Shown: positions 15,742 through 50,173, counted from the stretch's first letter. The stretch: DNA of 52,126 nt from Nanobdellota archaeon (GCA_023131705.1 JAGLZG010000057.1:1-52126), one strand, 5' to 3'. Program-made: numbers and translations. Notes: a model not told the origin generated them from the sequence alone.

Positions 15742-15765
15742 TCTTTATTTTTGATATTTTTCAGT

Positions 15766-16184: not shown

Positions 16185-16721
16185 TTAATTTGTCTTTCTA
16201 ATTACTTTTGCTGGAACGCCCACAGCAATACTATTAGATGGTATATTTTTATTGACGACAGAGCCTGGCCCTATTATAGCTTCGTCCCCTACATCCGCCA
16301 TAACTACTGTATTACTACCTACCCAAGAGTGTTTGCCTATCTTAATTGGAATTTTTTTTGGAGGATAAAATTTTTCGAGTATATTACCAGCTTTTGAATG
16401 ACTTATAATAGTACAATTAGGACCCATACTGGCATAGTCTGATATATCCACCCTATCATAAACGTCTATTAAAATTCCTGGTTCTATATGTGCAAATTTA
16501 CCTATTTTTAGGTTCTTTAAAGACCCAATATCATAGTTAATTAGATTGATATTATATATTATAGCATTATAACTAATCTTTGCCCCTAAGATATTCAAAA
16601 ATAAAATTCTTAATGGAGAATAAGGCAATAACTTTAATACAACCTCTAACAAAGGACTTAAAATAAGATATTTTAAAATAACCTTAACTCCTCTTTCTTT
16701 TATTATCTTCATTAAAATCAT
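16185..16721 (-). CDS. Hexapeptide-repeat (LbH) acyl/acetyltransferase with N-terminal hydrophobic segment
   Basis: C-terminal hexapeptide repeats IGKHSWVGSNTVVMADVGDEAIIGPGSVVNKNIPSNSIAVGVPAKVI. Confidence 0.75.
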   Translation of the reverse strand: MILMKIIKERGVKVILKYLILSPLLEVVLKLLPYSPLRILFLNILGAKISYNAIIYNINLINYDIGSLKNLKIGKFAHIEPGILIDVYDRVDISDYASMGPNCTIISHSKAGNILEKFYPPKKIPIKIGKHSWVGSNTVVMADVGDEAIIGPGSVVNKNIPSNSIAVGVPAKVIRKTN

Positions 16722-33841: not shown

Positions 33842-35335
33842 ATGACAAATTATCTATCTAGGGGGCTAAAAGGATTGTTTTTTATATTTACTTTTACATT
33901 TCTTGCCTATCTTACAGGTTATGTAACAAGGACATTATTAGCTAGAAATTTAGAAACTTCTCAATTTGGTCTGTTTTATGCTGTTTATACTCTTATTATG
34001 TTTGCTACCATATTTGCTTATTTTGGTTTTGGTGCACCTTTGGTAAAATATATTGTAGAGTTTAAAGCAAAAAAGAAGTATGAAAAACTAACATTTTCTA
34101 TTTTTTTCCCAACTTTAATTATGGCTTCACTTGCTATAATCATCTCTATTTTTTTATTTCTGAGTTCAAATTTTTTAGCAATAAATTTTTTTAAGACCCT
34201 GGAAGCTTTGTTTATAATAAGATTGTTTTCTATAGTTATGATATTAACTGTAATATTTCATACTCTAAATTTAATATTTAAGGGATTTCAAGACTTCTTT
34301 TTTGTTGGTCTTTCTACTTTCTTTGGAAAATTTTCTTTTACAATTTTTGTTATATTATTTCTTTTACTTGGCTTTGAAAAAAACGTGTATTTACCAACTT
34401 ATGCCATATTATTTGGGTTTGTGTTAACCATATTGTTGTTCTTGCCAAGGCTGCTTAAATATAAGGGTTATTTCAGAAAAATAAAATTTTCTTCTGATTT
34501 GGCAAAAAAAATCAAAAATTTTGCATTTGCATCTTTTTTAGCTTCAATTGGTTTATTAATAATTGGTTATGTTGATACTCTTATGTTAACATATTTTAGG
34601 TCTTTGGAAGAAGTTGGAATCTATAATGTTGTCTTACCGACTGTTATGGTATTGAGTATGTTTACTCAATCAGTCCGTAGTGTTTTGGCTCCTATGGTAA
34701 GTGAATTGTGGGCTAAAAATCTTAAAGAAAGATTAAGCAATGGAATAAAAATATTAAGAGATTATTCTTTAGTATTAATAGTTCCTATGATTCTTGTTCT
34801 GTTTGTTTTTCCGAAACCCATAATCACATTATTATTTGGTGCAAAGTATGTTAGCGGTTATTTAGCTATGCAGATCCTTTCTATAGGGATTGTATTTTTT
34901 ACAATTGGATTTATGGACATAATAATCATAAGATTTATTGGAAAACCAAAGGAAACAACAAAGATTATATTCATTGCAGTCATATTTAATGTAATTGCTA
35001 ATTTAATCCTTATACCTCTTTTTGGAATAAATGGAGCTGCTATAACAACAACACTAAGTTATTTTATTGTAATGATATTATCTTCTGTAAAATTAAATCA
35101 TTTTGTTAAGGTAAAATCAAGTTTATCATTTTGGTTTAAGGTTATATTTGCAGCTGTATTTTTTGTAATTACAGTAGCAATCGTTAAGGCATTATTGAAT
35201 ATAAACCAATTTGTTGAGGCTGCGATTTGTTTGATTTTAGCAACTGCTGTTTACCTTGGAATCTGTTATATGTTAAACCTTATTAAAATAAAAGAGGTTA
35301 AATTATTTTTGAGGAGTTTTTTATTGAGAAAATGA
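33842..35335 (+). CDS. MOP-superfamily polysaccharide flippase (Wzx-like)
   Basis: 497 aa with 12-14 hydrophobic helices, the Polysacc_synt-type architecture. Confidence 0.75.
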   Translation: MTNYLSRGLKGLFFIFTFTFLAYLTGYVTRTLLARNLETSQFGLFYAVYTLIMFATIFAYFGFGAPLVKYIVEFKAKKKYEKLTFSIFFPTLIMASLAIIISIFLFLSSNFLAINFFKTLEALFIIRLFSIVMILTVIFHTLNLIFKGFQDFFFVGLSTFFGKFSFTIFVILFLLLGFEKNVYLPTYAILFGFVLTILLFLPRLLKYKGYFRKIKFSSDLAKKIKNFAFASFLASIGLLIIGYVDTLMLTYFRSLEEVGIYNVVLPTVMVLSMFTQSVRSVLAPMVSELWAKNLKERLSNGIKILRDYSLVLIVPMILVLFVFPKPIITLLFGAKYVSGYLAMQILSIGIVFFTIGFMDIIIIRFIGKPKETTKIIFIAVIFNVIANLILIPLFGINGAAITTTLSYFIVMILSSVKLNHFVKVKSSLSFWFKVIFAAVFFVITVAIVKALLNINQFVEAAICLILATAVYLGICYMLNLIKIKEVKLFLRSFLLRK

Positions 35336-36381
35336 AAAAACCATTATTAGAAATCAAAAAAATATGGGACATTTATAATAATCCAAAAGATTATTACAGA
35401 TTTAATTATATTGGTCAAGAAATTAATATATTCTTTGGTAAAAATATTTTGCATAAACATTTAAAAGAAATATCTTGTTCTAAACCATTAAAAATCCTTT
35501 TTGAAGACATAGACTCAATAAAAACCTTAAAAAATGAACTTGAAAAAGATTTTCCAACAAAAGAAGATTCAAATTTAATTATCTCTTTAGGGGGAGCGGT
35601 AGCAATTAATAAAGGAAAAATATTGCGTAATGAAAATAAAAATAGCAGGCTTATAATTGTTCCAACCACATGCGCAAACGATGGATTTTTTACAAACAGA
35701 TATAAAAAAGATAAAAACTCAGCTTCTACAGCTTTAAGTGGGCTTATGCCTGACTTTCTAATTGTTGATACAGAAATGATAAAAAAATTAGTTACAGAAG
35801 ATATGATATATGCAGGATGGGGTGAGTTTTTGTCTTTAATTGCATCATATAATGATTGGAAGGAAAATAATAAAGGCCTAATTGAAAAAGATGAATTAGA
35901 GCTACTTGATAAACTTGTTGATAAGATGTTTAAAGATGCAAGAGATTTTTTTGAAAAAGAAGATGATATTAATAAAAGCGTTGATATTTTGATGCATTTG
36001 CTTTTTATGAAATGCTTATTTATGATGATTTATGATGACAATTCAATAGGGGCTTCAAGTGATCATATGTTTGCTTATAGTATAGAAGGGTTAGGTTATT
36101 GTGATAAGTTAAGACATGGGCAAAAAGTTTTGTTTGGAGCTATTGTATCTTCAGGATGCTATTCTATTATTAATGGAAATGGTTTTGTAGATATGATTCC
36201 TAAAAAAATAGTGGATTATGTTGTAAAAGAGGAATGTTTTAAAAAGATTTTAAATCCACAAGATTTAAAAGTGATTTTAGACAAAGCATTAGTATCAAGA
36301 AACAGGAAAACCATACTTAATAAGATACATAGTGATCACACATTTTACAATAGTTTAGTTAAAGAGATAAAAAATGTTTAG
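35332..36381 (+). CDS. Glycerol-1-phosphate dehydrogenase / AraM-like enzyme (DHQS-like, iron-ADH superfamily fold)
   Basis: SLGGAVAINKGK loop, VPTTCANDGF (cf. G1PDH VPTxxSxDG), AGWGEF (cf. GxGD), and putative metal ligands in SSDHMF and RHGQKV. ATGA overlap with wzx. Confidence 0.55.
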   Translation: MKKPLLEIKKIWDIYNNPKDYYRFNYIGQEINIFFGKNILHKHLKEISCSKPLKILFEDIDSIKTLKNELEKDFPTKEDSNLIISLGGAVAINKGKILRNENKNSRLIIVPTTCANDGFFTNRYKKDKNSASTALSGLMPDFLIVDTEMIKKLVTEDMIYAGWGEFLSLIASYNDWKENNKGLIEKDELELLDKLVDKMFKDARDFFEKEDDINKSVDILMHLLFMKCLFMMIYDDNSIGASSDHMFAYSIEGLGYCDKLRHGQKVLFGAIVSSGCYSIINGNGFVDMIPKKIVDYVVKEECFKKILNPQDLKVILDKALVSRNRKTILNKIHSDHTFYNSLVKEIKNV

Positions 36382-37540
36382 AAATCTTATACTAAAATAT
36401 AGGGTAGAGGAATCATCAAACAAAGAGATGGATATTGTTATAGATGTACTTATACAAAAAGTTATTGCAGATGCTTCTTTAGGAACAGATTATGTATTAA
36501 CTGCAACCGGTCAAGAATTTTCTGTTCATGAAAAACAAGATGATGTTGTTGAGGCTAAAGTTGTAAAAAGAGAAAAAATTGATGATAAAACTACCGAACT
36601 TGTATTTAGTGTCCCTATTTATTTTGAGGAGAAATCTGATTTCTTTCCAATGTTTTTAACATGTACTGGAGAACCGCCAGGATTCCATTCAAATATTTAT
36701 TTAGAGGATTTTTCTTTTGAAGGCGAAGATCCTTTTAAAAATGATTTAGCAAATGGACCAGAGAAGTATAAAAGATATTTTGGTAGAGAAGGCCCTTTTG
36801 TTGGAACAATAATAAAACCAAATCTTGGAACAGATATGGAGAAAAGGCTTGATTTAATAAAGAAGCTTATGATGGCTGGTGTTGATTTTCTTAAAGATGA
36901 TGAAGTTTTTGGGCATAAAAGTTTTGAGGATTTTGAAGAATATGTTATAAAAGTAAATAAAATAAGAGAAGAAGTTTATAAAAAAACAGGCTACAAAGCA
37001 TTAGTTTGTTTTAACATAACTTCTTTAGCTTCAAAAGCTGATGAAATATATAAATTGCCAATAGATGGAATTATGATAAATTTTTTGGCTTTAGGATTCT
37101 CAAAATCATATGATTTGGTACAGAAGTTCAAAGGTAAATGCATTATTCATGGCCACAGAGTAGGATCTGCTATTTTTTTAAGCAGAATTCATAAGAATGT
37201 TCTAATTAAATTAGCAAGCATGATTGGATTAGATAGCACACATATTGGAACATCACAACTAGATAAAATTGAGAAAGATTCAGAAAAGTTAGATACCCCT
37301 TATATAAAAACAATTTTAGCTACATTCACTAAAGTCAATCCAAAATATGTTGAACCCTTGATAAATAATTTTGGAAAAGATATCTTATTTTTACCTTGTG
37401 GAGGAGTTTACAGGCATCCAGGAGGTTTTGAAAAAGGGGTTAGAGCATTTAGAACAGCAATAGATATATATAATAATGAACAAAGTCAATTTTATGATAA
37501 AAAAGCATTTGATAAAGCATTAGCAAGGTGGGGTTATTAA
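36374..37540 (+). CDS. RuBisCO large-subunit-like protein (form IV RLP)
   Basis: IIKPNLG (cf. KPKLG), GVDFLKDDE (cf. DFTKDDE with carbamyl-Lys and metal ligands), IHGHRVG (cf. HxHRA), THIGT (cf. LHSGT) and LPCGGV (cf. SGG). At 388 aa it is short, with a divergent N-domain. Confidence 0.8.
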   Translation: MFRNLILKYRVEESSNKEMDIVIDVLIQKVIADASLGTDYVLTATGQEFSVHEKQDDVVEAKVVKREKIDDKTTELVFSVPIYFEEKSDFFPMFLTCTGEPPGFHSNIYLEDFSFEGEDPFKNDLANGPEKYKRYFGREGPFVGTIIKPNLGTDMEKRLDLIKKLMMAGVDFLKDDEVFGHKSFEDFEEYVIKVNKIREEVYKKTGYKALVCFNITSLASKADEIYKLPIDGIMINFLALGFSKSYDLVQKFKGKCIIHGHRVGSAIFLSRIHKNVLIKLASMIGLDSTHIGTSQLDKIEKDSEKLDTPYIKTILATFTKVNPKYVEPLINNFGKDILFLPCGGVYRHPGGFEKGVRAFRTAIDIYNNEQSQFYDKKAFDKALARWGY

Positions 37541-38403
37541 TGGGAATAAAAAATTTTTTTGAGGAAAAAGGATATTCTGATGCAGAAATAGTTAATGAAA
37601 GGATAGGATTCCTCAATTTAGTATATACTATAAAAGCAGGAGGTGAAACATTTTTCTATAAAAAAGCAGAGGAAAAAACAGGGTTGCCAACACCAATAAA
37701 TCCTGACAGGGTTTTTAATGAGTGGAAAGCAATTAATGCAGCAAAAACAGTAATTCCAGAGCATGTGCCTGAGATATTTGATTTTAGCAAAGAAAACAAC
37801 GTTATTATTACAAAAGCCCCCTCAAAAAAAGAATACACTCTTTTGAGATACGAACTATTAGATGGAAATCTTAATCTAGAATTGATTAAAAAAATTGCGA
37901 TTGCCCTAAAAAAACTTCATACTATAAAACAAGGAGATTTTAATAAGGAATTGTTTGAAAAAGCAAATATAGATTTTTGGTATAAAGAATTAGCAAAAGA
38001 ATATCCTAAAGTTATTGAAAAATTAATAGAGAATCTTAATCAAGAAAAATGTTTAACTCATGCAGACTTTAATCCAAAGAACATTGTTGTTTTTGAAGAC
38101 GGTTTTTATATTATTGACTGGGAAAAAGCTTTCATAAGCAGCCCAGAACATGATATTGGCAATATGCTTGCTCATTTTGTAATTAAAGGAATCCATTTGG
38201 GAAGAGAAGATTATCTTAAGGTTCCTGAAATATTTTTAGAAGCTTATGGTGAATATGTCGATAAAAACATTATTAATGGCCATATAGGGGTACTTATGTG
38301 GGCTAGAATAAAATCCTCTGCAAAAGCAAGATATTTGACATCTGAAACATCACAGAAAGTTCTTGAAGGGGCTCACAAGTATTTGAGAGAGTTTAAGCTT
38401 TAA
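37528..38403 (+). CDS. Small-molecule kinase of the APH / choline kinase / MtnK fold
   Basis: Brenner-type motif LTHADFNPKNIVV followed by IIDWEKAF. The N-terminal region YKKAEEKTGLPTPINPDRVFNEWKAI resembles the MtnK N-lobe. It overlaps the RLP stop. Confidence 0.7.
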   Translation: MGLLMGIKNFFEEKGYSDAEIVNERIGFLNLVYTIKAGGETFFYKKAEEKTGLPTPINPDRVFNEWKAINAAKTVIPEHVPEIFDFSKENNVIITKAPSKKEYTLLRYELLDGNLNLELIKKIAIALKKLHTIKQGDFNKELFEKANIDFWYKELAKEYPKVIEKLIENLNQEKCLTHADFNPKNIVVFEDGFYIIDWEKAFISSPEHDIGNMLAHFVIKGIHLGREDYLKVPEIFLEAYGEYVDKNIINGHIGVLMWARIKSSAKARYLTSETSQKVLEGAHKYLREFKL

Positions 38404-38424: not shown

Positions 38425-39342
38425 ATGAAACCTGTAAAAGAATGTATACCATGTCAAAGAAAGAGAGCTATGCTTATTACTAAAAATCTTAGTGAAGAGA
38501 AAAAGAAGGAATTGACCAAAAGGATAAATGTTCTTTTCTCTAATCTGGATATGAATAGATGCACAATAGATATAGCTAATGAGAGGAATAGGATAATCAA
38601 AGAAATTGCAGGTAAAGATGCATTAATGGATGATTTAAGGGAAGATAGTATGAAGGCTGCTGAAAAGATTTCTCCTAATCTAGAACAAGATTTAGAAAAA
38701 ATAAAAGATGAAGAGGAGAGATTTTGTAAGGCACTTAGAATAGCTTTGGCAGGAAATGTAATTGAATTTGGGACTACTAATCATGTTGTTAAAATAGGGG
38801 AAATAGAAAAAAGAGTACATGAAACAATTAAGCAGGAACCAGCAATAGATGACAGCAGAATGGTTTATGAAATTGTTCAAGCTTACAACCATTCAAACAG
38901 AATATTATATCTTGTTGATAATGCTGCTGAGATAGCATTTGACAGGTTGTTCATAAAGGAATTAGTAAAACATGCTATTGTTGTTATTGCAGCTTTATCA
39001 GAGCCGGATCAGGATGATGCTTGTGTAGAGAATCTAAAACGTTTTGGTATAGACAAGATACCTAATTGTGAAATTATAACAAAAGGGAAGTATATAGGGG
39101 CATATTTTCCAAACACAACAAAGCAATTTAAGGTAGAGTTTGAAAAAGCTGATTTAATTATATCAAAAGGCATGGGGAATTATGAGAGTCTAAGTGAATA
39201 CTCAGATAAGATAATAAACAAAGTTGTATTTATGTTAAAATTAAAATGTGGACCTGTTGCAGATAGCTTTAGTGATTTCTTCAATATAGGAAACAAACTA
39301 GAAGTTGGGGCAAATGTAATCAAGTTTGCTTCTAAAAATTAA
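38425..39342 (+). CDS. DUF89 (ARMT1-like) metal-dependent phosphatase family protein
   Basis: Family motifs VDNAAEIAFD (DNxxE...D) and KGMGNYESL. Confidence 0.7.
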   Translation: MKPVKECIPCQRKRAMLITKNLSEEKKKELTKRINVLFSNLDMNRCTIDIANERNRIIKEIAGKDALMDDLREDSMKAAEKISPNLEQDLEKIKDEEERFCKALRIALAGNVIEFGTTNHVVKIGEIEKRVHETIKQEPAIDDSRMVYEIVQAYNHSNRILYLVDNAAEIAFDRLFIKELVKHAIVVIAALSEPDQDDACVENLKRFGIDKIPNCEIITKGKYIGAYFPNTTKQFKVEFEKADLIISKGMGNYESLSEYSDKIINKVVFMLKLKCGPVADSFSDFFNIGNKLEVGANVIKFASKN

Positions 39343-41494
39343 TGAAATGAATAATATTAAAAAAACAAAAAATTATTGTATGATAGGTCATGTATCAATT
39401 TTAACTTCTAAAACTAAAGAAGGTAATAAAGGTAAATCCAATTCTGATATAATTAAAGAAAGAAAACCCTCTCAAAGAATAATGTCCTTGTTGACTAGTT
39501 TTGAGCAAAAAGATTATAAAAAAAACTATGTTTTCAAAAATTATTCAAAGACAATAAAAAACAAGAAACCAATAGAGCAATTTAAGTATTATCTGGAAAA
39601 CAATCCAGTTGTAATAAATGACAATGAACTTCTTGTAGGAGGTATCTTCCTAAGGTTTAAAGATATTAAGATGGAATTAAAGGCAGGAAATGCCTTTAAA
39701 AGGGTAATTGGAGATTCATATTTTTCAACAGGAGTTAAAGGGTATAGTATAAGAACTCCTCCAGGATATAAAAATATAATAAAATTTGGTTTTGCAGGAC
39801 TAAGAGACAAATCATTAAGATTATTAAAAAAAGAGAAAGATCCTGAAAAGATAAAGTTTTTAGAGAACAGCGCTAAAGCCAATGATTTAGCTTGTAAGTT
39901 TATAGCAAAATATTCTGAAGAAGCCTTGAGGAAATCTAAAACTGAAAAAAATCTTTCTAGAAAAAGAGAGTTATTGAAGATAGCAAAATGCTGTCATGAT
40001 ATTTCTGTTAGAGAACCACGTCATTTTTATGAAGGGGTCCAGATTATCTGGTTTACTAAGGTCTTTGGTGCTGTTGGTGGCTTAGGAAGATTTGACCAAT
40101 ATCTTTGGAAATTATTTAAAAAAGACCTCAAGGAAGGAAGATTGAATTATGAGGGGGCATTAGACCTTATTGAAGATTTTTGGATAAAATGCAATTTATG
40201 GAATCAGGGATGGACTGCACCAAATGATTCATGGCAGCACATTACATTATCAGGATTAAAACCTAATGGGGGAGATGGTACAAATGATTTAACTTACTTA
40301 TGTTTACAGGCGCAATATGATCTAAAATTACCAGAACCTAAAGTTAGTGTGAGGTTTTCAGGTAAACATCCTGAAGGGTTAGTTGCTGAAACCTGTAAGG
40401 TTCTTAGATTGGGATTAGGAATGCCTTCTATCTATAATGATAAAGTTGTTATTCCTGGTCTTAAAAGATTAGGGATAAGTTTGAAAGATGCAAGAGATTA
40501 TACAAATAATGGATGTTCAGAGATAATTTTAGATGGTAATTCAACAACTTGTTTTGCTCAAATAAATCTTTTGGATATATTGAATAAAACAATAAGAAAA
40601 AAAGCATTTTCTAATTTTAAAGATTTGTTAGATACATATAAAGTTGAGATTGAAAAAGAGATACAAATTCCAGAAGTAAATTCTGTTACACACCCTCTTT
40701 TAGCTTCTACAATGGATGATTGCCTTTTGAAAGGCTCTGGCAATTGCGCAAGATACATTCTTAAAGGAAGCCTTGCTAATGCAACACCAAATGCAGTGGA
40801 TGGTTTAGCAGCAATAAATAAACTGGTTTTTGAAGATAAAAAATTATCATTGAACAAATTTATTAAAGCATTAGATTCTAATTTCAAGGATAATTCTATC
40901 AGGCACTTAATTATTAATGTTCCTAAATATGGAAATGATGAATCTTATGCAGATTTAATAGCAAAGGATATTGCAGAATATTTTTGTGATGCTGTTTTAA
41001 GAAAATATCCTAATAAAAAAGGAGATAATATCAAGGTTTCTCCAGGATTATTGGCTTTTGATGTACAATATCTTAGACATATGGATGCATCTCCAGATGG
41101 AAGAAAGAAAGGAGAGCATGTTGCTAATGCTATAAGCCCAGCTATTGGGAGAGATTTAAAAGGACCTACAGCAGTAATCAATTCTGCTAGGAAAATAGAT
41201 TTTAGAAAAGCAAGCTATGGCTCTGTTCTTGACATGGTTTTTTATTCAGGTTTATTTTCTCAACAAACAGAAGACAGATTTGTTGATTTTATTAGAACTT
41301 TTTTAAAGTATCCATCTACAGCAACATTACATGTCAATTTTCTTGACATAGAACTTTTGAAAGCTGTTCAAAAAGATCCTAAAAACCCAGCGTATAAAAA
41401 TATAATTGTAAGAGTATGGGGATTCTCAGCTTATTTTGTTGATTTGGACAAGGATTTACAAGATCATATTATCAAAAGGACACAATTTATGTAA
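39326..41494 (+). CDS. Glycyl radical enzyme, eliminase/dehydratase-type Cys loop
   Basis: C-terminal glycyl radical motif VRVWGFSAYFVDL and Cys loop NNGCSEIIL (GCxE, as in the diol/choline/hydroxyproline eliminases, not the CC of PFL). The start codon is uncertain (39326, 39347 or further in). Confidence 0.85.
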   Translation: MLLKINEMNNIKKTKNYCMIGHVSILTSKTKEGNKGKSNSDIIKERKPSQRIMSLLTSFEQKDYKKNYVFKNYSKTIKNKKPIEQFKYYLENNPVVINDNELLVGGIFLRFKDIKMELKAGNAFKRVIGDSYFSTGVKGYSIRTPPGYKNIIKFGFAGLRDKSLRLLKKEKDPEKIKFLENSAKANDLACKFIAKYSEEALRKSKTEKNLSRKRELLKIAKCCHDISVREPRHFYEGVQIIWFTKVFGAVGGLGRFDQYLWKLFKKDLKEGRLNYEGALDLIEDFWIKCNLWNQGWTAPNDSWQHITLSGLKPNGGDGTNDLTYLCLQAQYDLKLPEPKVSVRFSGKHPEGLVAETCKVLRLGLGMPSIYNDKVVIPGLKRLGISLKDARDYTNNGCSEIILDGNSTTCFAQINLLDILNKTIRKKAFSNFKDLLDTYKVEIEKEIQIPEVNSVTHPLLASTMDDCLLKGSGNCARYILKGSLANATPNAVDGLAAINKLVFEDKKLSLNKFIKALDSNFKDNSIRHLIINVPKYGNDESYADLIAKDIAEYFCDAVLRKYPNKKGDNIKVSPGLLAFDVQYLRHMDASPDGRKKGEHVANAISPAIGRDLKGPTAVINSARKIDFRKASYGSVLDMVFYSGLFSQQTEDRFVDFIRTFLKYPSTATLHVNFLDIELLKAVQKDPKNPAYKNIIVRVWGFSAYFVDLDKDLQDHIIKRTQFM

Positions 41495-41495
41495 A

Positions 41496-42251
41496 ATGAA
41501 ATTAAATAAGTCAAATAAATCAGAGAAATTAATTGTTTTTGATATTAAGAGGTTTGCAATACATGATGGTCCAGGTATAAGGACAACTGTTTTTTTACAA
41601 GGATGTCCTTTAAGATGTGGCTGGTGCCATAATCCTGAAGGAATTAGTATTGGTAAAGGTCCAAAATCTAAAAAAATTGAATTAAATGAATTATTTGAGG
41701 AAATAATTAAAGATAAACCTTTTTATGAGATTTCTAAGGGGGGAGTTAGTTTTTCTGGTGGAGAGCCAATGCTCCAATTTAAACCGCTTACTAAACTTTT
41801 AAGAATGTGTAAGAAATCCAAGGTTAATACAGCAGTGGAAACTTGCGGACATTGCAATTGGGAAGCTTTTGAAAAGATAATCCCTTTTGTTGATTTGTTT
41901 TTTTATGATTTGAAGCATATTGATAATAAAATTCATAAAAAAGGGACTGGAAGCAGTAATAAAATAATTCTTGACAATCTAAAAAAGCTTGATAAAAGGG
42001 GATGTAATATTGTTATTAGAATACCTCTTATTTCTGGTTTTAATGATGACAAAAAAACCTTTTCAGATATTGGAAAATTTCTTTCAGAATTAAAAAACAT
42101 AAGATTTATAGAAGTTCTTCCTTTTAATGTGTTTGCAGAATCAAAATACTCTAAGCTTGGGAAAAAGATTGATGAGAAATTTACTAAAATTTTATCTCAG
42201 CAGAAGATTAATGAATTAACAGAACCCTTAAGAAAGGAGATTAGGAAATAA
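41496..42251 (+). CDS. Glycyl radical enzyme activating enzyme (radical SAM, short PflA-like form)
   Basis: FAIHDGPGIRTTVFLQGCPLRCGWCHNPE and SGGEPMLQ. The start is set to ATG 41496, 1 nt after the GRE stop. The tracked ORF begins at 41436, inside the GRE. Confidence 0.85.
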   Translation: MKLNKSNKSEKLIVFDIKRFAIHDGPGIRTTVFLQGCPLRCGWCHNPEGISIGKGPKSKKIELNELFEEIIKDKPFYEISKGGVSFSGGEPMLQFKPLTKLLRMCKKSKVNTAVETCGHCNWEAFEKIIPFVDLFFYDLKHIDNKIHKKGTGSSNKIILDNLKKLDKRGCNIVIRIPLISGFNDDKKTFSDIGKFLSELKNIRFIEVLPFNVFAESKYSKLGKKIDEKFTKILSQQKINELTEPLRKEIRK

Positions 42252-42269: not shown

Positions 42270-43712
42270 TTAACAAACAATTTTTAACTTTCGCTTTAAA
42301 AAAGGAACAACATAATTAAGGATTCTTAATTTTTCCAATAGCATAATCTTTTTTAGATAATTTGGATGGGTTTTTAGGAATTTACTCTCACTTAACATTT
42401 TTATAAACCAATTAGGCGTTATTGTGCTCGCGAGAATGTATAAACTATTGTAAAACCTTTCATAATCTTTTCCTTTATCTTTATTAAATCTCCAGTTAGT
42501 ATGCATCTTATTACTATACTGCTCGAGATCATCATGTTTTATAAAACCTTTCTCCAATGCTAAATTTGTTAGCTCTGTATTTGGGAAATAAATAAGTGAG
42601 AATATTATTAAATCAAAAGGTTTCCTCAGTTTTAAGAGAAGATTAAGAGTTTCTTCCTTGTTTTGTTTAGTTTCAAATGGGTTATCAACTATTAAATGAT
42701 ATGTTACATTTATTCCCCACCTTTTTAGCATTTTAGAAACATCTATTAACATTTTATTAGACATAAATCTTTTATAAAGTCCTTGTCTTATCTTTTCAGA
42801 ACCAGATTGAATTCCTACAAAAACTCTCTCTAAATTAGCTTCTTTAAGTTTTGTTAGGATTTCTTCATCACAGAACAGAGGATGTATGTTGATGTAAAAC
42901 GGAATGTTAATGTGTTTCTTGTATTTTTCTGCAAATTCCAGGACCCATTTTCTATCCATAAGAAAAACATCATCTCTTATATCTACTATCTTTATATCAT
43001 AGTTTTCTTTTAATTCCTGCAATTCCTTTATAACATTATCAACACTCCTTCTTCTTATGTAATTACCACATTCCTTCTGGGCATTTCTTAATGAGTTATT
43101 GCCACAATAAGTGCAGGAATAAGGACATCCTCTTGCACCCATTATATATGCAACCTCTATCTTTTTTAGTTCTGTTTTTATTGTGTTATCTTCTATATAA
43201 TATTTGTTCTTATCTGTCCAGTCTGCAAATTCTTGTTTGTTTGGGTCTGTGAACTTTCTTAGTTTGTTTCTTATTATCTTACCATTTTTATTGACCCAAA
43301 TATTTAATATGCTATCTGTCCTTTTTTGTATGAGATCTGGTAATGCTTCTTCAGCTTCTCCAACACATATATAATCTGCTTCTTTAATACATTCTTCAGG
43401 ATTAGTTGTTGGATGAAATCCACCCCAAATGACTTTTGCATTCGTGTTCTCTTTAATCAATTTTGTTATCTTTTTAGATAGCTGAAAGTAATGAGACATT
43501 AAACTTATTCCTACAAAATTAGGATTTAATTCTTTTATTTTGCTGATTAGTAAATTAAATTCCTGTTCTGTTGGATATTCCAGTTTGTTTTTTTGGTATG
43601 TATCTTTTAGAAAAATAGTATGAACTTCAATCTTTTTATTGTATAGAGTTTTATGTAATATTCTAATTGGATGATTCCTGAAATCATAAAATGCTATTAA
43701 AACAATCTTCAT
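42270..43712 (-). CDS. B12-binding-domain radical SAM enzyme (class B)
   Basis: An N-terminal Rossmann-like B12-binding-type domain (MKIVLIAFYDF...GISLMS...VIWGGFHPT) followed by GARGCPYSCTYCGN (CxxxCxxC). Confidence 0.75.
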   Translation of the reverse strand: MKIVLIAFYDFRNHPIRILHKTLYNKKIEVHTIFLKDTYQKNKLEYPTEQEFNLLISKIKELNPNFVGISLMSHYFQLSKKITKLIKENTNAKVIWGGFHPTTNPEECIKEADYICVGEAEEALPDLIQKRTDSILNIWVNKNGKIIRNKLRKFTDPNKQEFADWTDKNKYYIEDNTIKTELKKIEVAYIMGARGCPYSCTYCGNNSLRNAQKECGNYIRRRSVDNVIKELQELKENYDIKIVDIRDDVFLMDRKWVLEFAEKYKKHINIPFYINIHPLFCDEEILTKLKEANLERVFVGIQSGSEKIRQGLYKRFMSNKMLIDVSKMLKRWGINVTYHLIVDNPFETKQNKEETLNLLLKLRKPFDLIIFSLIYFPNTELTNLALEKGFIKHDDLEQYSNKMHTNWRFNKDKGKDYERFYNSLYILASTITPNWFIKMLSESKFLKTHPNYLKKIMLLEKLRILNYVVPFLKRKLKIVC

Positions 43713-43731: not shown

Positions 43732-44871
43732 TTAAAATGTTTCGTCAAAAACCATTCCAACAACTTCTTCTGTTATTTCAATTGGATCACGACCTGTAAG
43801 TACATCCATAGTATTTTTTATTATCCTTGCTTTGTCATCTTGTGTTATTCCTAATTCACTTAATCTTGTTTTTTCTCCTGTGTCTTTAATTAGTTTCTTC
43901 ATTTTGTTACCAAATTCTTCTACTGTTTTGCAATCAACAACATTAGCCATTTCCAATATCTCATTTTTAACTTCTTTACCACATTTCTCTGCATAAATAT
44001 TTAAAAATGCAGGCAAGGGCAAGATACAAGCATATCCATGGTTAATGTTGTGGAATGTTGTAAGTGGGCATGAAAATGAATGTGGTCCAACTGTTCCTGT
44101 TTGAGTAAAAGCAAGTCCAGCGTATAGGCTTGCTAAAGCCATGTTTGTTCTTGCATCAATATTTTCTGGTTGGTCTACTGCCGTTTTTAAATTATCAAAC
44201 ACCATTGTTATTGCTTTTAATGCAAACATTTTTGATATAGGGTTTTTGTTGCTGTTTGATAGGCAAGATTCAACTGCCTGAGCTAGCACATCATATCCTG
44301 TATGGGCTGTTATGTGTTTAGGCATTGTTAGAGTCAATTCAGGATCAATTATTGCAATATTAGGATACATGTATTCACTTCTTATACCCATCTTTATGCC
44401 TGTTTCTTCATCTGTTATTACAGATGCAATAGTTACTTCTGATCCTGTACCTGATGTAGTAGGTATAGCTATTAATGGAATACTTTCTCTCCCTATAATT
44501 CTTCTTTTGTGGATATAATCATTAATTGTTCCAGCGTTTGTCATTAACATAGCAATAGCTTTTCCAGTGTCCATTGCACTTCCACCACCTATAGCTATTA
44601 TTAATTCTATTTTATTTTTCTGAGCAAGTCTTTTTCCTTTTTCAATTATTTTTGAGTGAGGATTTGGTTCAACATACTCAAAAATAGTTAAATTACAATC
44701 TTTTAGTTGCTTAAGTAATCTCTCTTTGAGTTCTAGTTTTTCCATCAATACTTTTTCTGTTACAAGAAGTATGTTTTTTACATTAAAATCTTGTTTAATA
44801 TATTTACCAATCTTATTAAACTCCCCATTACCAATATGTAGTTTTACTGGCATTTCATATTTGAAACTCAT
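43732..44871 (-). CDS. Iron-containing (group III) alcohol dehydrogenase
   Basis: IAIGGGSAMDTGKAIA, IPTTSGTGSE and His-rich metal site motifs. The start is set to MSFKYEMPVKLHIGNGEF (44871), the normal family N-terminus. The tracked ORF extends to 44976. Confidence 0.8.
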   Translation of the reverse strand: MSFKYEMPVKLHIGNGEFNKIGKYIKQDFNVKNILLVTEKVLMEKLELKERLLKQLKDCNLTIFEYVEPNPHSKIIEKGKRLAQKNKIELIIAIGGGSAMDTGKAIAMLMTNAGTINDYIHKRRIIGRESIPLIAIPTTSGTGSEVTIASVITDEETGIKMGIRSEYMYPNIAIIDPELTLTMPKHITAHTGYDVLAQAVESCLSNSNKNPISKMFALKAITMVFDNLKTAVDQPENIDARTNMALASLYAGLAFTQTGTVGPHSFSCPLTTFHNINHGYACILPLPAFLNIYAEKCGKEVKNEILEMANVVDCKTVEEFGNKMKKLIKDTGEKTRLSELGITQDDKARIIKNTMDVLTGRDPIEITEEVVGMVFDETF

Positions 44872-45028
44872 TTTGTTATTTTTTATTAGAAGTAAAGGAG
44901 GATATATAAAGGTTTTTGTTAATTTTAATTTTTGTAAGTTATAAATGAAAACTTTGTTATTGAAAATTGGATTCATAAATCATAAATACATAACTTTTAT
45001 AAACTAACCAAAGTTTTTCTATTTTAAA

Positions 45029-45766
45029 ATGTTCGATAATTTCAAAAAAAAAGTAAAAGAAGAAACAAAAGTCAGAGTATTCTATACAGAAAAAATAACT
45101 AGGAATATCACTCCTTTAATAACCAAACTTCTTTTATTAACACCAATAACAGCAAACCAAGTTACTTTTATTATGCTCTTAACAGGACTAGTTGCTGCTT
45201 TTTTATTTGTTTTTGATATCCAATCATATGCTATAATTGGTTCATTATTGTTGATTTTACAACATACCTTAGATGCAGTTGACGGAGAAATAGCAAGATA
45301 CAAAAAAATATCTTCTCTGAGAGGAAAATATCTAGATATAATAACTCATTATACAACTGAACCTGCACTTTTTATTGGTATTATGTTTGGAATTTTAAGG
45401 TCAAATCCAACAATAACTATCATAATAGCTGGAATTTCTTGTGCAATATTTATCTCCTTAATCAATTTAACTTATTTAATAAAAAAATATATAGTAATAG
45501 AACAAGTAGCTAAACAAGGAAAATGGAAAACCGTAAAAAAAGAGAGAAATAAAAATATCCTATCAAAGATTTATAGACCTTTAGCACCAATATTCAGATG
45601 GCCAGAATATCATTTTGTTGTATTATTGGCCTCTATATTTTATAGACTTGACTGGTTGCTGTATTTCTATGGATGCACCCTACCAATAATATTCTTAATT
45701 AGATCATTTGTTGAATTTTATGCTATACCCAAAGATATAAAAAAAATCAAGAAAATAATATGGTAA
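45029..45766 (+). CDS. CDP-alcohol phosphatidyltransferase-family membrane protein
   Basis: Signature LDAVDGEIARYKKISSLRGKYLDIITH (DxxDGxxAR...GxxxD), with about 6 hydrophobic helices. The last signature Asp reads His. Confidence 0.7.
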   Translation: MFDNFKKKVKEETKVRVFYTEKITRNITPLITKLLLLTPITANQVTFIMLLTGLVAAFLFVFDIQSYAIIGSLLLILQHTLDAVDGEIARYKKISSLRGKYLDIITHYTTEPALFIGIMFGILRSNPTITIIIAGISCAIFISLINLTYLIKKYIVIEQVAKQGKWKTVKKERNKNILSKIYRPLAPIFRWPEYHFVVLLASIFYRLDWLLYFYGCTLPIIFLIRSFVEFYAIPKDIKKIKKIIW

Positions 45767-45767
45767 A

Positions 45768-46508
45768 ATGAAAGCTTTACTCTTTGCAGCAGGAAGGGGA
45801 AAAAGAATAAGTGAATTAGCAAAAGATATTCCAAAACCTCTGTTAGGAATAGCAGAAGGAAAAACCATTATTGAAAATCTATTAGATATGCTTTTATTAA
45901 ATAATGTTAAAGAAGCTGTTATTGTTATTGGTTTTAAAGGAGAAAAAATAATTGAAAAATTAACTAACAATTATAAAGGAATAAAGATTACCTATGTTTT
46001 GAATAAAGACTATGAAACAACAAACAGTGCTTATTCTTTTTATGTTGCCAGAAACTATGTAAAAGAAGGATGCTTGCATTTTAATGCAGATAATGTAATG
46101 CACCCAAAAATAATTGAAATACTTATTAATGCTGAAAAAGAGAATGCCTTTATGTATGATGATATGAATCCTCCATGTGAAGAGGATTGCAAAGTTAGAA
46201 TAGATGAGAAAGGAGCAATACTTGACTTAGGTAAACAGATGGATCCTTCAAATACCCAGGGATGGATTATAGGAAGCGGTAAATTCTCAGCAGAAGGTAT
46301 CAAAAAAGTAGTTGATATAATGGAAAATGATATTGAAAAATGGAAAAAGCTTAATATACCATTACTTCTTTTTGGGCAGGGCATTGATGTTTATGCTGTG
46401 AGCAGTAAGGGTTATCCTTTTGGTGAGATTGATAATGTAGAGGATTTAGAAAAAGTAAGAAATGAAGTTTACCCAAAGATTTTAAAAGACATTCAAAATT
46501 TAACTTAG
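45768..46508 (+). CDS. Nucleotidyltransferase (LicC/MobA-like, phospho-alcohol or sugar-phosphate cytidylyltransferase candidate)
   Basis: N-terminal MKALLFAAGRGKRISELAKDIPKPLLGI; 246 aa. It starts 2 nt after the CDP-alcohol transferase stop. Confidence 0.65.
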   Translation: MKALLFAAGRGKRISELAKDIPKPLLGIAEGKTIIENLLDMLLLNNVKEAVIVIGFKGEKIIEKLTNNYKGIKITYVLNKDYETTNSAYSFYVARNYVKEGCLHFNADNVMHPKIIEILINAEKENAFMYDDMNPPCEEDCKVRIDEKGAILDLGKQMDPSNTQGWIIGSGKFSAEGIKKVVDIMENDIEKWKKLNIPLLLFGQGIDVYAVSSKGYPFGEIDNVEDLEKVRNEVYPKILKDIQNLT

Positions 46509-47673: not shown

Positions 47674-48996
47674 ATGAAAAATACTATTGAAAAAGTAACA
47701 AATAATAATTTGTGTAATGGATGTGGAACATGTATCGGAATTTGCCCTGTTAATGCAATATCTCTTAGGAAAAATCTTTCTGGTAATTTTTATCTTCCTT
47801 TAATAGATAAGGAAAGATGCATAAATTGCGGGAAATGCTATAATGTATGCCCTGGACATTCTGTCGATTTTAAAAAATTAAATCAAAAAATATTTGGAAA
47901 ACAACCTGAAAATAAATTAATTGGTAATTTTATAAAAGCATATACGGGGTTTTCTAAAGATGAGAATCTGAGATTCAATTGTTCTTCTGGAGCTTTAGTT
48001 ACAGAATTGCTCTTATTTTTATTAGAAAATAGAGAAATTGATGGAGCTTTAGTTACAACAATGAATGAGAAAAATCCATTAGAACCCAAAGTAATCCTTG
48101 CTAAAACCAAAAAGCAGATTCTAAATGCTTCAAAATCAAAATACTGTCCAGTTGCTCTTGGGGTAGGATTGAAAGAAGTTCTAAAAAATAAAGGAAAGTT
48201 TGCAGTAGTTGGGCTTCCTTGTCATATACATGGAATAAGAAAAGCGGAACAATTGATTCCTGATTTAAAGGACAAGATAAAATTTCATTTTGGCCTAGTT
48301 TGTATGCATACAATGGGATTTTTAGCAACAGAATATTATCTAAAATCTCTTAATATAAAAAAAGAAGATATCAAAGAAATACAATACAGGGGAAAAGGTT
48401 GGCCCGGTTTTACATCAATTTACCTTAAAAATGGAAAAAAGATTGAAATACCAAGAAACAATAAAAAAAAGAAAAATTTCAAACAAATATTGGATTATGA
48501 AACAGCATTCCACCTAAGTTTTATACCTGAAAGGTGTTTAACTTGCACTGATGGTTTGAATGAATTGGCAGATATAACTTTTGGTGATGCATGGTTACCC
48601 GAATATTTAAAAACTGATAATAAAGGAACTTCTTTAGTTATAACGAGAACAAAAAAAGCAGATGAATTAATAGAAAGAGTCAAAGCAAACAAAAAAATAG
48701 AACTAAATGAACTACCTATTGAATCAGTAATTAAGGGACATAAAAATGCTTTAATATTCAAAAAAAGTTTAAAAGCAAAGACATTATTTCTGAAAAAACC
48801 AAATTATAACCAAGATTTAATAAAAAATGTTACTATAAAAAATTGGATACTTTCATTTATTTCCATAATCTTCTCAAAAATTTCAAAAAGAAGGTGGTCA
48901 TGGTTATTTTTGAATATATACCCTTTTGTTTATCTCCTATCTTCACGGATTTATTTTTTCTTCAGAAAATTAAAAAATAGGTTTAAAATTTATTAA
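47674..48996 (+). CDS. FrhB-like (coenzyme F420 hydrogenase/dehydrogenase beta subunit family) flavo-iron-sulfur protein
   Basis: Two ferredoxin motifs, CNGCGTCIGICP and CINCGKCYNVCP, followed by an FrhB-like body and a C-terminal hydrophobic tail. Convergent overlap with the pyruvyl transferase gene. Confidence 0.7.
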   Translation: MKNTIEKVTNNNLCNGCGTCIGICPVNAISLRKNLSGNFYLPLIDKERCINCGKCYNVCPGHSVDFKKLNQKIFGKQPENKLIGNFIKAYTGFSKDENLRFNCSSGALVTELLLFLLENREIDGALVTTMNEKNPLEPKVILAKTKKQILNASKSKYCPVALGVGLKEVLKNKGKFAVVGLPCHIHGIRKAEQLIPDLKDKIKFHFGLVCMHTMGFLATEYYLKSLNIKKEDIKEIQYRGKGWPGFTSIYLKNGKKIEIPRNNKKKKNFKQILDYETAFHLSFIPERCLTCTDGLNELADITFGDAWLPEYLKTDNKGTSLVITRTKKADELIERVKANKKIELNELPIESVIKGHKNALIFKKSLKAKTLFLKKPNYNQDLIKNVTIKNWILSFISIIFSKISKRRWSWLFLNIYPFVYLLSSRIYFFFRKLKNRFKIY

Positions 48997-50173
48997 TGAA
49001 TCTGCTTAATATTTTTGTATTTTTCAAACAAAGTTTCTCAATTTTCGGTATTTTTTCTTTTAAATTTTTTTCTATCTTTTTCTTATTTAACCATAACTGC
49101 TCAAATTTTAATTTAAATTTATTAAAATCAACTTTTTGGTAGTTGAAAACATATTCTTCAAGGTTAAAAAGCTGCATAACTTCAACATATTTGTGGCTCC
49201 ATCCAAGGACAATTGTTGGAACTTTCATTGAGGTTGAGGCAACTATAGAATGATATCTTGAACCAATAAATACTTTACACAAACCAATTATTGCTTTGAG
49301 TTCTTCAGGACCATAATTTTTCTCTATTATCCTTATTTTATCCTTATTTTTACATTTTTTATACACTTCTTTGGCAACAAAAACATCGTCTTTTCCTTTA
49401 ACACTCACATAGTGTGGAATAAAGAGAATATTCACATCTAAATTTGAATTTAGATAGTCTGTAAGTTTAACCAAGAAATCAACATATCTTTTGTTTTTTT
49501 TATAGATGTACTCATTTACAGCAATACCTATTATTTTTTCATTCTGCTCTATTTTTTCATTCTTTATTATTTGATTAATTCTGTCTTTTCCAATAGGCTC
49601 TAAAAGAAAGGCACTGTCTGGGAAAACATAATCTGCTTTTATTCCAATTTGCTTTAAGTAATTTTTACTGGCATTGCCCCTTACAGTTATTAGCTTCACT
49701 TTTTTAAGAGCATATTTTGCAAGAATCCTATTTGATAATTTTTTAAATGGACCAAAAGACTGGCTGTACATTATAACTGATTTTTTTAGCATAAAAGCTA
49801 ATTTTAATCTTAGAGCTAATCCTAAGTTTACATTGAATTTAAAAGCATCTGTAAAAGAGATACCATTTAAATCCAGAATAACATCTGCATTATTGTAGGC
49901 ATTCAGAACTTTGTCTTTGTTCTTTAGCTTTCTATTGAAGAAAAATCTTAAAGGCAGAACAATATATTTAACTGGATTATTAGATAAATAACTCATATCT
50001 ACTATATTAATCTTATATTTATCACAATATTTTTTATCGTAATCAGCATTAGGAGATAACATAGTTATTTCTAATGGTTTTATCAGCGTTCTTAGAGCAT
50101 TAGATGTGCTTATTAACATTGCTCCCGCCCCTTTATTCTGAAAATGGGTTCCTGTTATGAGTATTTTTGTCAT
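48983..50173 (-). CDS. Polysaccharide pyruvyl transferase (CsaB/WcaK family)
   Basis: C-terminal family block FIGSRYHSIVASTSMKVPTIVLGWSHKY; 396 aa. Confidence 0.8.
   Translation of the reverse strand: MTKILITGTHFQNKGAGAMLISTSNALRTLIKPLEITMLSPNADYDKKYCDKYKINIVDMSYLSNNPVKYIVLPLRFFFNRKLKNKDKVLNAYNNADVILDLNGISFTDAFKFNVNLGLALRLKLAFMLKKSVIMYSQSFGPFKKLSNRILAKYALKKVKLITVRGNASKNYLKQIGIKADYVFPDSAFLLEPIGKDRINQIIKNEKIEQNEKIIGIAVNEYIYKKNKRYVDFLVKLTDYLNSNLDVNILFIPHYVSVKGKDDVFVAKEVYKKCKNKDKIRIIEKNYGPEELKAIIGLCKVFIGSRYHSIVASTSMKVPTIVLGWSHKYVEVMQLFNLEEYVFNYQKVDFNKFKLKFEQLWLNKKKIEKNLKEKIPKIEKLCLKNTKILSRFINKF

Follow-up and report, generated by a model that had tools for sequence, protein, structure and literature searches.

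A rare RuBisCO-like protein on a cold-seep archaeal contig lies in a conserved gene module suggestive of CDP-activated head-group synthesis

Introduction

RuBisCO-like proteins (RLPs), the non-carboxylating members of the RuBisCO superfamily, have salvage or catabolic functions in the literature that we searched, namely methionine salvage, the methylthioadenosine (MTA)-isoprenoid shunt and apiose degradation. Bacillus MtnW works with the APH-fold kinase MtnK earlier in its pathway and the phosphatase MtnX after it, and the Rhodospirillum rubrum RLP (a 5-methylthioribulose 1-phosphate, MTRu-1-P, 1,3-isomerase) and the apiose RLPs OiaX and OiaC act on keto-sugar monophosphates by isomerization, decarboxylation or transcarboxylation, in pathways that also include a kinase and a dehydrogenase (PMC6302742, which summarizes the MtnW and R. 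rubrum RLP reactions). A 2018 survey of RuBisCO in the candidate phyla radiation (CPR) and DPANN archaea reported a single DPANN RLP, of the IV-Photo type (PMC6389311), and our full-text literature search returned no report of an RLP associated with nucleotidyltransferase or cytidine diphosphate (CDP)-alcohol genes, or of such an association in DPANN or Woesearchaeota. Here, we describe an RLP gene on contig JAGLZG010000057.1 (assembly GCA_023131705.1, Nanobdellota archaeon), the whole 52,126-nucleotide stretch of which (positions 1-52126) was analyzed and is called the window below.

The best reading of this gene is that it encodes a catalytically competent (as predicted), non-carboxylating member of the RuBisCO superfamily that founds a very rare, unsampled clade. 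Functionally, we posit, at a probability of roughly 0.55, that the protein is a Mg-dependent enolizing or isomerizing enzyme acting on a keto-sugar monophosphate, coupled to a dehydrogenase and supplying a CDP-activated surface head group.

Results

An intact RuBisCO-like gene with a confident fold

An earlier reading of the window, made from sequence only, had proposed a 388-residue RuBisCO-like open reading frame (ORF), and this ORF proved to be intact, with every peptide that had been quoted from it in place: ADASLGTDY at residues 32-40, KPNLG at 148-152, DFLKDDE at 171-177, HGHRVG at 259-264, THIGT at 289-293, PCGGV at 341-345 and HPGG at 348-351. Pfam RuBisCO_large (PF00016) matched residues 140-319 at 95.5 bits against a cut-off of 30.1 (E-value 4.5e-27), so that, by sequence comparison, the family match is far beyond chance. 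All NCBIfam matches, in turn, lay 4-10 fold under their curated cut-offs: type III RuBisCO was the top family (118 bits, cut-off 497), and the others were the generic large subunit (107 bits, cut-off 438), two MtnW models across the full C-domain (79.7 bits, cut-off 409, and 75.4 bits, cut-off 513.6), OiaX (68.9 bits, cut-off 700) and form II (54 bits, cut-off 489).

With only the four clade sequences as input, structure prediction gave an unusable result (predicted local distance difference test, pLDDT, of 60), which was replaced by an AlphaFold model built on a 109-sequence alignment of RLPs from homology searches, with a pLDDT of 93.6 and a predicted template modeling (TM) score, pTM, of 0.90. 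This model has the two-domain RuBisCO fold, an N-terminal alpha/beta domain followed by a C-terminal TIM barrel, and Foldseek matched it to 2d69, 3a12 and 2zvi with TM scores of 0.77-0.80 over about 415-435 aligned columns; the matched structures are the type III RuBisCOs of Pyrococcus horikoshii and Thermococcus kodakarensis and the MtnW of Bacillus/Geobacillus, at 20-25% identity. Pairwise ratios of nonsynonymous to synonymous substitution (dN/dS) against three other lineages were 0.12-0.27, with dS close to saturation. The gene is thus real, confidently folded and under purifying selection.

The PF00016 score, the fold and the K201/D203/E204 triad (spinach numbering) all place the protein in the RuBisCO large-subunit superfamily. 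It departs from bona fide RuBisCO (forms I-III) at K177, N123 and K334, in not having both phosphate sites intact and in its NCBIfam scores; from MtnW in its equivalog score and in the absence of Lys at the N123-equivalent position; and from OiaX and OiaC in its equivalog score.

A retained activation site and a remodeled substrate site

To map the active site, the clade was aligned in three ways: with HMMER to PDB chains, with MAFFT to form III-like proteins carrying all canonical motifs, and within the 109-sequence RLP alignment. The RuBisCO active-site residues are given in spinach numbering and were located by alignment to sequences that carry the canonical motifs. Kept residues (spinach = window RLP) are T65=T38, T173=T145, K175=K148, K201=K174, D203=D176, E204=E177, H294=H261, R295=R262, H327=H290 and G404=G343, and G405 is retained as well. 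Two changes are conservative (E60 to D33, S379 to T319), and the altered or lost positions are W66 (D/N39), N123 (E100), K177 (N150), H298 (S265, with Phe in P0004), K334 (absent), G380 (K320), G381 (deleted) and G403 (C342). Loop 6 is shorter by 6-7 residues and has no conserved K334, position 298 reading K/D/N/D across the clade. The earlier claims that the metal/carbamate site, the His-Arg pair and the loop His are kept, and that KPKLG reads KPNLG, agree with the alignments, in which K201/D203/E204, H294/R295 and H327 persist and Asn replaces K177.

Other parts of that reading gave way. PCGG had been taken for the SGG motif with Ser changed to Cys, whereas three independent alignments put PCGGVYRHP on the (G)GGG-x-x-G-H-P motif, where Cys stands for G403; the true equivalent of SGG (S379-G380-G381) is T319-K320 with a one-residue deletion (TFT-KVNP). 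The shortened region that had been described between SGG and GHP is an artefact, because PCGG was wrongly assigned to SGG, and the true deletions are loop 6 and the segment after it. The N-terminal block, which had been called unrecognizable, is degenerate but alignable: ADASLGTDY pairs with AESSxGTW, with the E60 change and the kept T65 inside it, and GEPPGFH pairs with GNxFGxK, which contains the N123 change.

Conservation follows the same lines. K174, D176 and E177 do not vary within the clade and hardly vary in 105 other RLPs; the K175, H294, R295 and H327 equivalents are invariant in the clade, as are its own characteristic residues E100, K320 and C342, which fall on active-site positions; and the non-canonical positions listed above are invariant or consistently non-canonical across it. 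On these alignments, the metal/carbamate site, K175, H294 and the R295/H327 phosphate site are retained, and the second phosphate site has been rebuilt. Because K177, N123, H298, K334 and the S379-G380-G381 loop are lost, the protein is classed as an RLP and predicted not to be a carboxylase. The earlier verdict against carboxylation therefore stands as a sequence-based prediction, with the CO2-addition residues K177, N123 and K334 missing from the alignments and the loss of K334 and N123 strengthening it.

A very rare clade and its nearest relatives

Among 5.8e9 protein clusters, a word-indexed search picked up three relatives of the RLP, at 75, 72 and 51% identity, all metagenomic, and full-length clade proteins in these clusters number 4. 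When 1.84e9 cluster representatives were searched exhaustively with an HMMER profile, a single one, from the clade, scored below an E-value of 1e-30, with the next match at 106 bits, and scans of GTDB genomes and JGI metagenomes with patterns from the clade alignment gave no relatives. Two more, partial members lie at contig ends, one 49% identical (locus L015) and one preserving the C-terminal 49 residues at 63% identity (L097), the latter recovered through a degenerate DNA pattern for PCGG[VI]Y[RQ]HP.

A neighbor-joining tree of 225 superfamily members gave no placement: distances were saturated (at least 1.6 to everything) and the clade was attached by long-branch attraction. Because of this saturation, placement was based on profile-profile scores (hhalign), which against the clade were 211 for P0005-like RLPs, 199 for form III-like proteins, 192 for P0006/P0022, 177 for P0019-like proteins and 125 for Bacillus MtnW. 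The clade is a new orphan sub-family of RLPs with an intact activation site and a remodeled substrate site.

Its closest other RLP clade is thus the P0005-like one (Nanoarchaeota metagenome-assembled genome, MAG, GCA_034660355.1 and relatives). Both clades share KPN, Asp or Glu at position 123, [ST][KR] with a one-residue deletion at SGG, and CGG[VI][YH][RQ]HP.

Elsewhere in the superfamily, the searches also brought up many short RLP-like proteins (340-365 residues; P0008, P0010, P0011, P0013, P0018 and others) without the HxHR and GHP motifs, which may be the phage-type "form IV-like" group of an earlier study (PMC6389311), and two proteins of 726-742 residues (P0015, P0040) in which a canonical-looking RuBisCO domain lies C-terminal to an N-terminal extension of about 460 residues.

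A conserved module around the RLP

A dehydrogenase gene lies directly upstream of the RLP gene in every locus with a visible upstream side. Its stop overlaps the RLP start by 8 nt in the window (ATGTTTAG), and the pair has overlapping stop and start in L001-4, L005, L006, L007 and L015 as well. In L001-L004, the gene order is flippase, dehydrogenase, RLP, kinase, HAD phosphatase, CDP-OH_P_transf, methyltransferase, NTP_transf, second CDP-OH_P_transf and iron-containing alcohol dehydrogenase (Fe-ADH), and in L005 it is dehydrogenase, RLP, kinase, CDP-OH_P_transf, NTP_transf and CDP-OH_P_transf. Six genes (flippase, dehydrogenase, RLP, kinase, CDP-OH_P_transf and NTP_transf) make up a core shared as orthologs by the window, L001 and L005 (55-76% identity by BLASTP), and the phosphotransferase and nucleotidyltransferase of the window are 76% and 71% identical to the L005 genes directly after the kinase. 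Since these L005 orthologs directly follow the kinase, the 6.5-kb block of the window that runs from ARMT1 through a glycyl-radical enzyme (GRE), its activase and a B12-binding radical S-adenosylmethionine (SAM) enzyme (B12-rSAM) to Fe-ADH is missing from the kinase-transferase interval in L001 and L005, the only two related loci that show this interval. PF01066 and PF00483 neighbors occur in the window, L001-L003, L005, L012, L013 and L016; the transferase neighborhood is outside view in L006, L015 and L097, owing to contig ends or to an RLP that is last in its operon.

The RLP stop also overlaps the kinase start (TAATG), and this overlap, with an adjacency kept in the three closest lineages, makes a functional RLP-kinase link plausible. 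The GRE, by contrast, was rejected as a partner of the RLP, as no GRE counterpart is found in L001, L005, L012 or L016. The sequence-only reading had been right that a glycan island is unlike the described RLP neighborhoods; its emphasis on the GRE did not hold, since this gene stands two genes downstream and is no conserved neighbor, and it missed the invariant dehydrogenase partner and the logic of a cytidylyltransferase paired with a CDP-alcohol phosphotransferase.

Similar surroundings recur in other RLP lineages. P0005-like genes lie among CDP-OH_P_transf, NTP_transf (one HAD-fused), B12-rSAM, methyltransferase and flippase genes (L012, L013, L016), the window B12-rSAM is 32-34% identical to those beside the P0005-like RLPs in L012 and L016, and in L016 the sister-clade RLP comes immediately after the NTP_transferase. 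From their shared motifs and neighborhoods, we propose to group the window clade and the P0005-like clade as putative "transferase-associated RLPs". RLP::NTP_transferase fusions of 658-672 residues occur in L008-L011 (gene 8001-10019; P0213 and about 15 related clusters), at glycan loci that carry phosphoenolpyruvate (PEP) mutase, phosphonopyruvate decarboxylase, Fe-ADH, two sulfatase-family genes, a small cupin, a flippase and PMT_2. These fusion proteins are a separate RLP lineage, with KPKVG, Gly at position 123 and HFQK in place of HR. Unlike the transferase-associated RLPs, the P0019-like family sits in a catabolic-looking sugar locus.

Genes of the module and of the accessory block

The features around the RLP are collected in Table 1.

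Table 1 The RLP gene, its conserved module and the accessory block in the window.
Feature	Coordinates	Strand	Evidence
MOP/Wzx-type flippase, first gene of conserved module	33842..35335	+	Pfam Polysacc_synt 98 bits; 59% identity to L001 flippase at same position
Glycerol-1-phosphate-dehydrogenase-like protein (Fe-ADH_2 / DHQS-like fold)	35332..36381	+	NCBIfam glycerol-1-phosphate dehydrogenase 56 bits, below cut-off
RuBisCO-like protein (RLP), 388 aa	36374..37540	+	Intact ORF, Pfam, NCBIfam, predicted structure
APH-fold small-molecule kinase, weakly MtnK-like N-lobe	37540..38403	+	Pfam APH 49 bits
ARMT1/DUF89 damage-control-type phosphatase, accessory	38425..39342	+	Pfam ARMT1-like 155 bits; slot of HAD phosphatase in L001
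Glycyl-radical enzyme (GRE), PFL2/dehydratase class, 722 aa, accessory	39326..41494	+	Pfam PFL-like 333 bits and Gly_radical 50 bits
GRE activase (radical SAM), accessory	41436..42251	+	NCBIfam TIGR02494 262 bits, cut-off 174
B12-binding radical SAM enzyme (B12-rSAM), accessory	42270..43712	-	Pfam B12-binding and Radical_SAM
Iron-containing alcohol dehydrogenase (Fe-ADH), accessory	43732..44976	-	Pfam Fe-ADH 168 bits; NCBIfam ErcA/PsrA-like ~230 bits, below cut-off
CDP-alcohol phosphotransferase (PF01066), conserved module member	45029..45766	+	Pfam CDP-OH_P_transf
Small-phospho-alcohol-type nucleotidyl (cytidylyl) transferase (PF00483), conserved module member	45768..46508	+	Pfam NTP_transferase; NCBIfam IPCT full length

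The best PDB matches of the dehydrogenase are 3ce9 and the glycerol-1-phosphate (G1P) dehydrogenases (G1PDHs) 5fb3 and 9h4x. It keeps the GGA and PTxxxND motifs of the G1PDH/GldA fold, D146, H245 and H262 are invariant and, by analogy, candidate metal ligands, and its dN/dS is 0.2-0.4; proteins of its type are as rare as the RLP, with 4 in the 5.8e9 clusters. The kinase has the motifs HADFNPKN and IIDWE and is 66-67% identical to those of L001 and L005. Its best NCBIfam family is S-methyl-5-thioribose (MTR) kinase, at 44.7 bits and far under cut-off, and it matches PDB entry 2pyw (E-value 0.002), which is labeled "Uncharacterized protein" and which we take to be Arabidopsis MTR kinase. Because of the TAATG overlap and the N-termini of its orthologs, we set its start at ATG 37540 and not at GTG 37528 of the mechanical ORF list.

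For the phosphotransferase, the nearest NCBIfam families are archaetidylinositol-phosphate synthase and DIPPS, and the PDB matches are AF2299 (4o6m) and IPCT-DIPPS (4mnd). It carries the motif DxxDGxxAR(x8)GxxxDxxxH, in which the fourth signature Asp is His in all five copies from loci of the window clade and Thr or Gly in the L016 copies. The nucleotidyltransferase matches 6pd1 best (listed as "Nucleotidyl transferase/aminotransferase, class V"; presumably a PntC-type phosphonate cytidylyltransferase fusion), then 4jd0 and LicC (1jyk). By sequence, both transferases resemble enzymes for small phospho-alcohols and not for sugar-1-phosphates. Weak phosphonate-family similarities are seen in Fe-ADH, B12-rSAM and the nucleotidyltransferase; a phosphonate head group is not proposed, because the window contains no PEP mutase or phosphonate route.

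Within the accessory block, the GRE starts at a TTG codon inside the ARMT1 gene and scores under all NCBIfam equivalog cut-offs, its best families being the PFL2-3 subfamily, sulfopropanediol dehydratase and HypD. The Fe-ADH is 32% identical to its distant L001 counterpart, and GRE and Fe-ADH together could deoxygenate a diol-containing head group.

Within the glycan island, the minus strand also groups genes for an FkbH-like protein (13939-15741), a 4'-phosphopantetheinyl transferase (15766-16101) and a hexapeptide acyltransferase (16185-16721) with a 139-residue ORF without Pfam match (13517-13936), and the cluster as a whole (13517-16721) suggests a carrier-protein-linked glyceryl or acyl decoration. 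Beyond the module, an FrhB/FdhB-like iron-sulfur flavoprotein (47674-48996, plus strand) converges with a polysaccharide pyruvyl transferase (48983-50173, minus strand), their 3' ends overlapping. At the P0004-like loci, the convergent gene after the RLP (1471-2559, minus strand, in L006; 11651-13117, plus strand, in L097) has no Pfam match in the shared region, where the two copies are 60% identical, and the L097 copy carries a fused C-terminal NUDIX domain.

Source and assembly of the window

The sequence occurs in cold-seep metagenomes, and the window has about 30% G+C. The UDP-glucose 6-dehydrogenase of the window (981-2318; L017) has its closest match, at 71% identity, in Nanoarchaeota MAG177 (JAYEIZ01), the MAG encoding P0005, and its next matches come from Woesearchaeota and anammox Planctomycetota; the L097 contig carries the archaeal housekeeping genes Taw2/Trm5, LeuRS and DUF63. 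A cold-seep archaeal host of DPANN affiliation (Woesearchaeales/Nanoarchaeota-type) is likely by these similarities, and it stops short of proof because glycan genes move horizontally. In the best-matching sequencing run, Logan contigs break at 35320-35349, 38541-38570 and 44824-44853, with 30-nt overlaps and an even depth of ~22-29. These breaks fall exactly on the borders of both the dehydrogenase-RLP-kinase unit and the block from ARMT1 to Fe-ADH, and may reflect strain-level presence or absence of cassettes, or branching of the assembly graph.

Discussion

A model for head-group synthesis, and what weighs against it

G1PDH reduces the 2-keto-1-phosphate end of dihydroxyacetone phosphate (DHAP) to G1P, and a phosphatase often follows PIP, AIP and DIPP synthases. 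We propose a route in which, in the sub-branch of the window, the MtnK-like kinase would supply the phosphorylated precursor, and the RLP would bind the monophosphate of a keto-sugar or keto-polyol that ends in phosphate-CH2-C(=O)-, taking the proton adjacent to the Mg-bound carbonyl to give an enediolate and so isomerizing, epimerizing or tautomerizing its substrate. The dehydrogenase, translationally coupled to the RLP, would reduce the same 2-keto-1-phosphate end to a polyol phosphate as G1PDH does, and these two steps could run in the reversed order. The LicC/PntC/IPCT-like nucleotidyltransferase would then activate the phospho-alcohol with cytidine triphosphate (CTP), the CDP-alcohol phosphotransferase would move the head group to a lipid or lipid-linked glycan, a phosphatase (ARMT1 in the window, HAD in L001) would remove the terminal phosphate, and the MOP flippase would export the product as a surface decoration. 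The block of GRE, activase, B12-rSAM and Fe-ADH would be a lineage-specific add-on, probably deoxygenating or methylating the head group. The phosphate-CH2-C(=O)- end is common to all characterized RLP substrates and to ribulose 1,5-bisphosphate (RuBP; for MtnW and the R. rubrum RLP, see PMC6302742). We favor biosynthesis of an activated head group over catabolism because of the invariant G1PDH-like gene upstream and the cytidylyltransferase and CDP-alcohol phosphotransferase genes downstream.

The model is supported by synteny across three RLP lineages and remains inference, and several observations weigh against it. Substrate, step order and acceptor are all inferred, and no RNA-seq run was listed with the RLP gene. 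In the P0004-like sub-branch (L006, L097), the RLP is last in the operon with no kinase after it; kinase adjacency is thus not universal, as the RLP closes the operon there and faces a convergent glycosyltransferase-like gene. The P0004-like contigs end before any transferase genes, so that the full module is documented in three lineages only. In the sister clade, the kinase and the G1PDH-like gene are both absent, and substrate supply must therefore differ. The chemistry or acceptor of the phosphotransferase may be atypical, since its fourth motif Asp is missing. That the window is unbroken at the block borders depends on the original assembly. Finally, a kinase and a phosphatase in one operon are also compatible with a salvage-type series such as MtnK...MtnW-MtnX.

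Alternative readings

The last of these points leads to the reading that we regard as unlikely but worth keeping in sight, namely that the RLP is a salvage or catabolic enzyme of the methionine or 5-deoxyribose type that recycles radical-SAM by-products, with the transferases nearby by coincidence or fed by its product (for example, DHAP converted to G1P). The MTR-kinase family, weak as the match is, ranks best for the kinase, MtnW models cover the full RLP C-domain at 75-80 bits, a phosphatase (ARMT1 in the window, HAD in L001) comes after the kinase, the window holds three radical-SAM-type enzymes, and the MtnK/MtnW/MtnX series and the R. rubrum MTRu-1-P isomerase route offer precedents (PMC6302742 for the known RLP reactions). 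Against this stand the absence of MtnA (IF-2B), MtnB (class II aldolase), MtnD (acireductone dioxygenase, ARD) and a cupin among the ORFs of the window, to which this search was confined, the position of MtnW among the two most distant groups by profile-profile score, and a module that opens with a flippase and whose transferases are orthologous across lineages. The active site points the same way: R295, which is Pro in MtnW-annotated proteins, is kept, and the N123-equivalent is Glu, whereas the commonest residue in the other RLPs compared, Bacillus MtnW-annotated proteins included, is Lys. This Lys we take to be the general base of MtnW (K98 in G. kaustophilus). A role after nucleotide activation, in which the RLP would be a tailoring isomerase or epimerase of a CDP- or other nucleoside diphosphate (NDP)-linked keto-sugar or keto-polyol with the diphosphate held in the rebuilt K320 site, could account for the RLP::NTP_transferase fusions, for the L016 RLP directly after its NTP_transferase and for the new cationic residue (K320; Arg in the sister clade) that replaces the glycine phosphate loop. 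Still, channeling of an RLP product into the transferase explains the fusions equally well, the RLP is translationally coupled to the dehydrogenase and kinase while the nucleotidyltransferase lies 1-8 kb away, and no characterized RLP in the literature searched is known to use a nucleotide-linked substrate; this role accordingly strikes us as distinctly unlikely.

Far less credible are the two readings that deny the protein its proposed chemistry. A non-catalytic or decaying homolog, be it a pseudo-enzyme or a dehydrogenase subunit with a structural or regulatory role, might be suspected from the shortest length among close relatives, with several shortened loops, and from an orphan clade tightly coupled to one partner; we consider it very improbable, given an ORF that is intact in all lineages at dN/dS 0.12-0.27, a confident fold, and the invariance of the metal/carbamate triad, of the K175, H294, R295 and H327 equivalents, and of E100, K320 and C342. 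That the protein is a bona fide, if unusual, form III-like RuBP carboxylase in nucleotide salvage, as in many DPANN archaea, we hold to be almost certainly wrong. Type III RuBisCO does supply its best NCBIfam family and top structural matches, and K175, K201, D203, E204, H294, R295 and H327 are kept, but the family score is 118 bits against a cut-off of 497, K177N, N123E, H298S/F, the deletion of K334, the rebuilt S379-G381 and G403C all speak against carboxylation, and the window contains neither AMP phosphorylase nor ribose-1,5-bisphosphate (R15P) isomerase.

Implications

The window clade and its nearest clade, both set among cytidylyltransferase and CDP-alcohol phosphotransferase genes, and the lineage fused to a nucleotidyltransferase together suggest repeated recruitment of the RuBisCO scaffold for activated envelope head groups, a role of which our literature search returned no description. 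The six-gene core is, moreover, small enough to be expressed in a search for a new phospho-alcohol decoration in DPANN archaea, a group with hardly any known envelope chemistry. As a more speculative extension, on which we would place only a small wager, the RLP and its private dehydrogenase might form a two-enzyme route to an undescribed polyol phosphate, such as a deoxy- or methylthio-pentitol phosphate made from SAM by-products, CDP-activated and displayed on DPANN surfaces or lipids; the carbon could come from 5-deoxyribose or methylthioribose, in view of the MtnK-like kinase and the many radical-SAM enzymes of the island. If true, this polyol-phosphate route would be the first anabolic function of the RuBisCO superfamily beyond carbon fixation, and a new archaeal head-group pathway. 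The active-site changes that accompany the loss of carboxylation (K334/loop 6, N123E, K177N and SGG to T-K) add a data point in any case.

Comparison with known systems

Among described proteins, type III RuBisCO (P. horikoshii 2cwx/2d69, T. kodakarensis 3a12) has the same fold as the window RLP (TM 0.78-0.80) at 23-25% identity. Compared with it, the RLP keeps the carbamate/Mg triad, K175, H294, R295, H327, T65 and G404, differs by K177N, N123E, H298S/F, E60D, loop 6/K334, SGG to T-K and G403C, is about 35-55 residues shorter and lies outside an AMP-salvage context. The P0005-like RLPs are the best profile match and, at 106 bits, the highest-scoring sequences outside the clade, and share partner genes with it, but identity is only 26-30%; they retain E60, H298 and the loop-6 Lys, are 414-432 residues long, and have loci without the G1PDH-like gene and kinase.

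MtnW/YkrW (form IV-YkrW, the 2,3-diketo-5-methylthiopentyl 1-phosphate, DK-MTP-1-P, enolase) is likewise a non-carboxylating RLP, with a 1-phospho-2-keto substrate and a TM score of 0.77 to the RLP model; in contrast to it, the window context would be biosynthetic and not salvage, E100 stands for Lys and R295 for Pro, and the profile-profile score is among the lowest. The chemistry of the R. rubrum RLP, OiaX and OiaC is of the type proposed for the window RLP, but their pathways are catabolic or salvage and without nucleotidyl or CDP-alcohol transferases, and neither a cupin methylsulfurylase nor a DUF1537-type kinase is present at the window locus. For the module as a whole, the nearest logic is that of IPCT/DIPPS, of the AIP and PIP synthases with their phosphatase, and of the Kennedy-type LicA-LicC system: CTP activation by a small NTP_transferase and then PF01066 transfer, often with a phosphatase. 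The window PF01066 enzyme differs from those systems in having His for the fourth motif Asp, and the phospho-alcohol here would come from an RLP and a G1PDH-like enzyme, and not from an inositol-phosphate synthase or a choline kinase alone.

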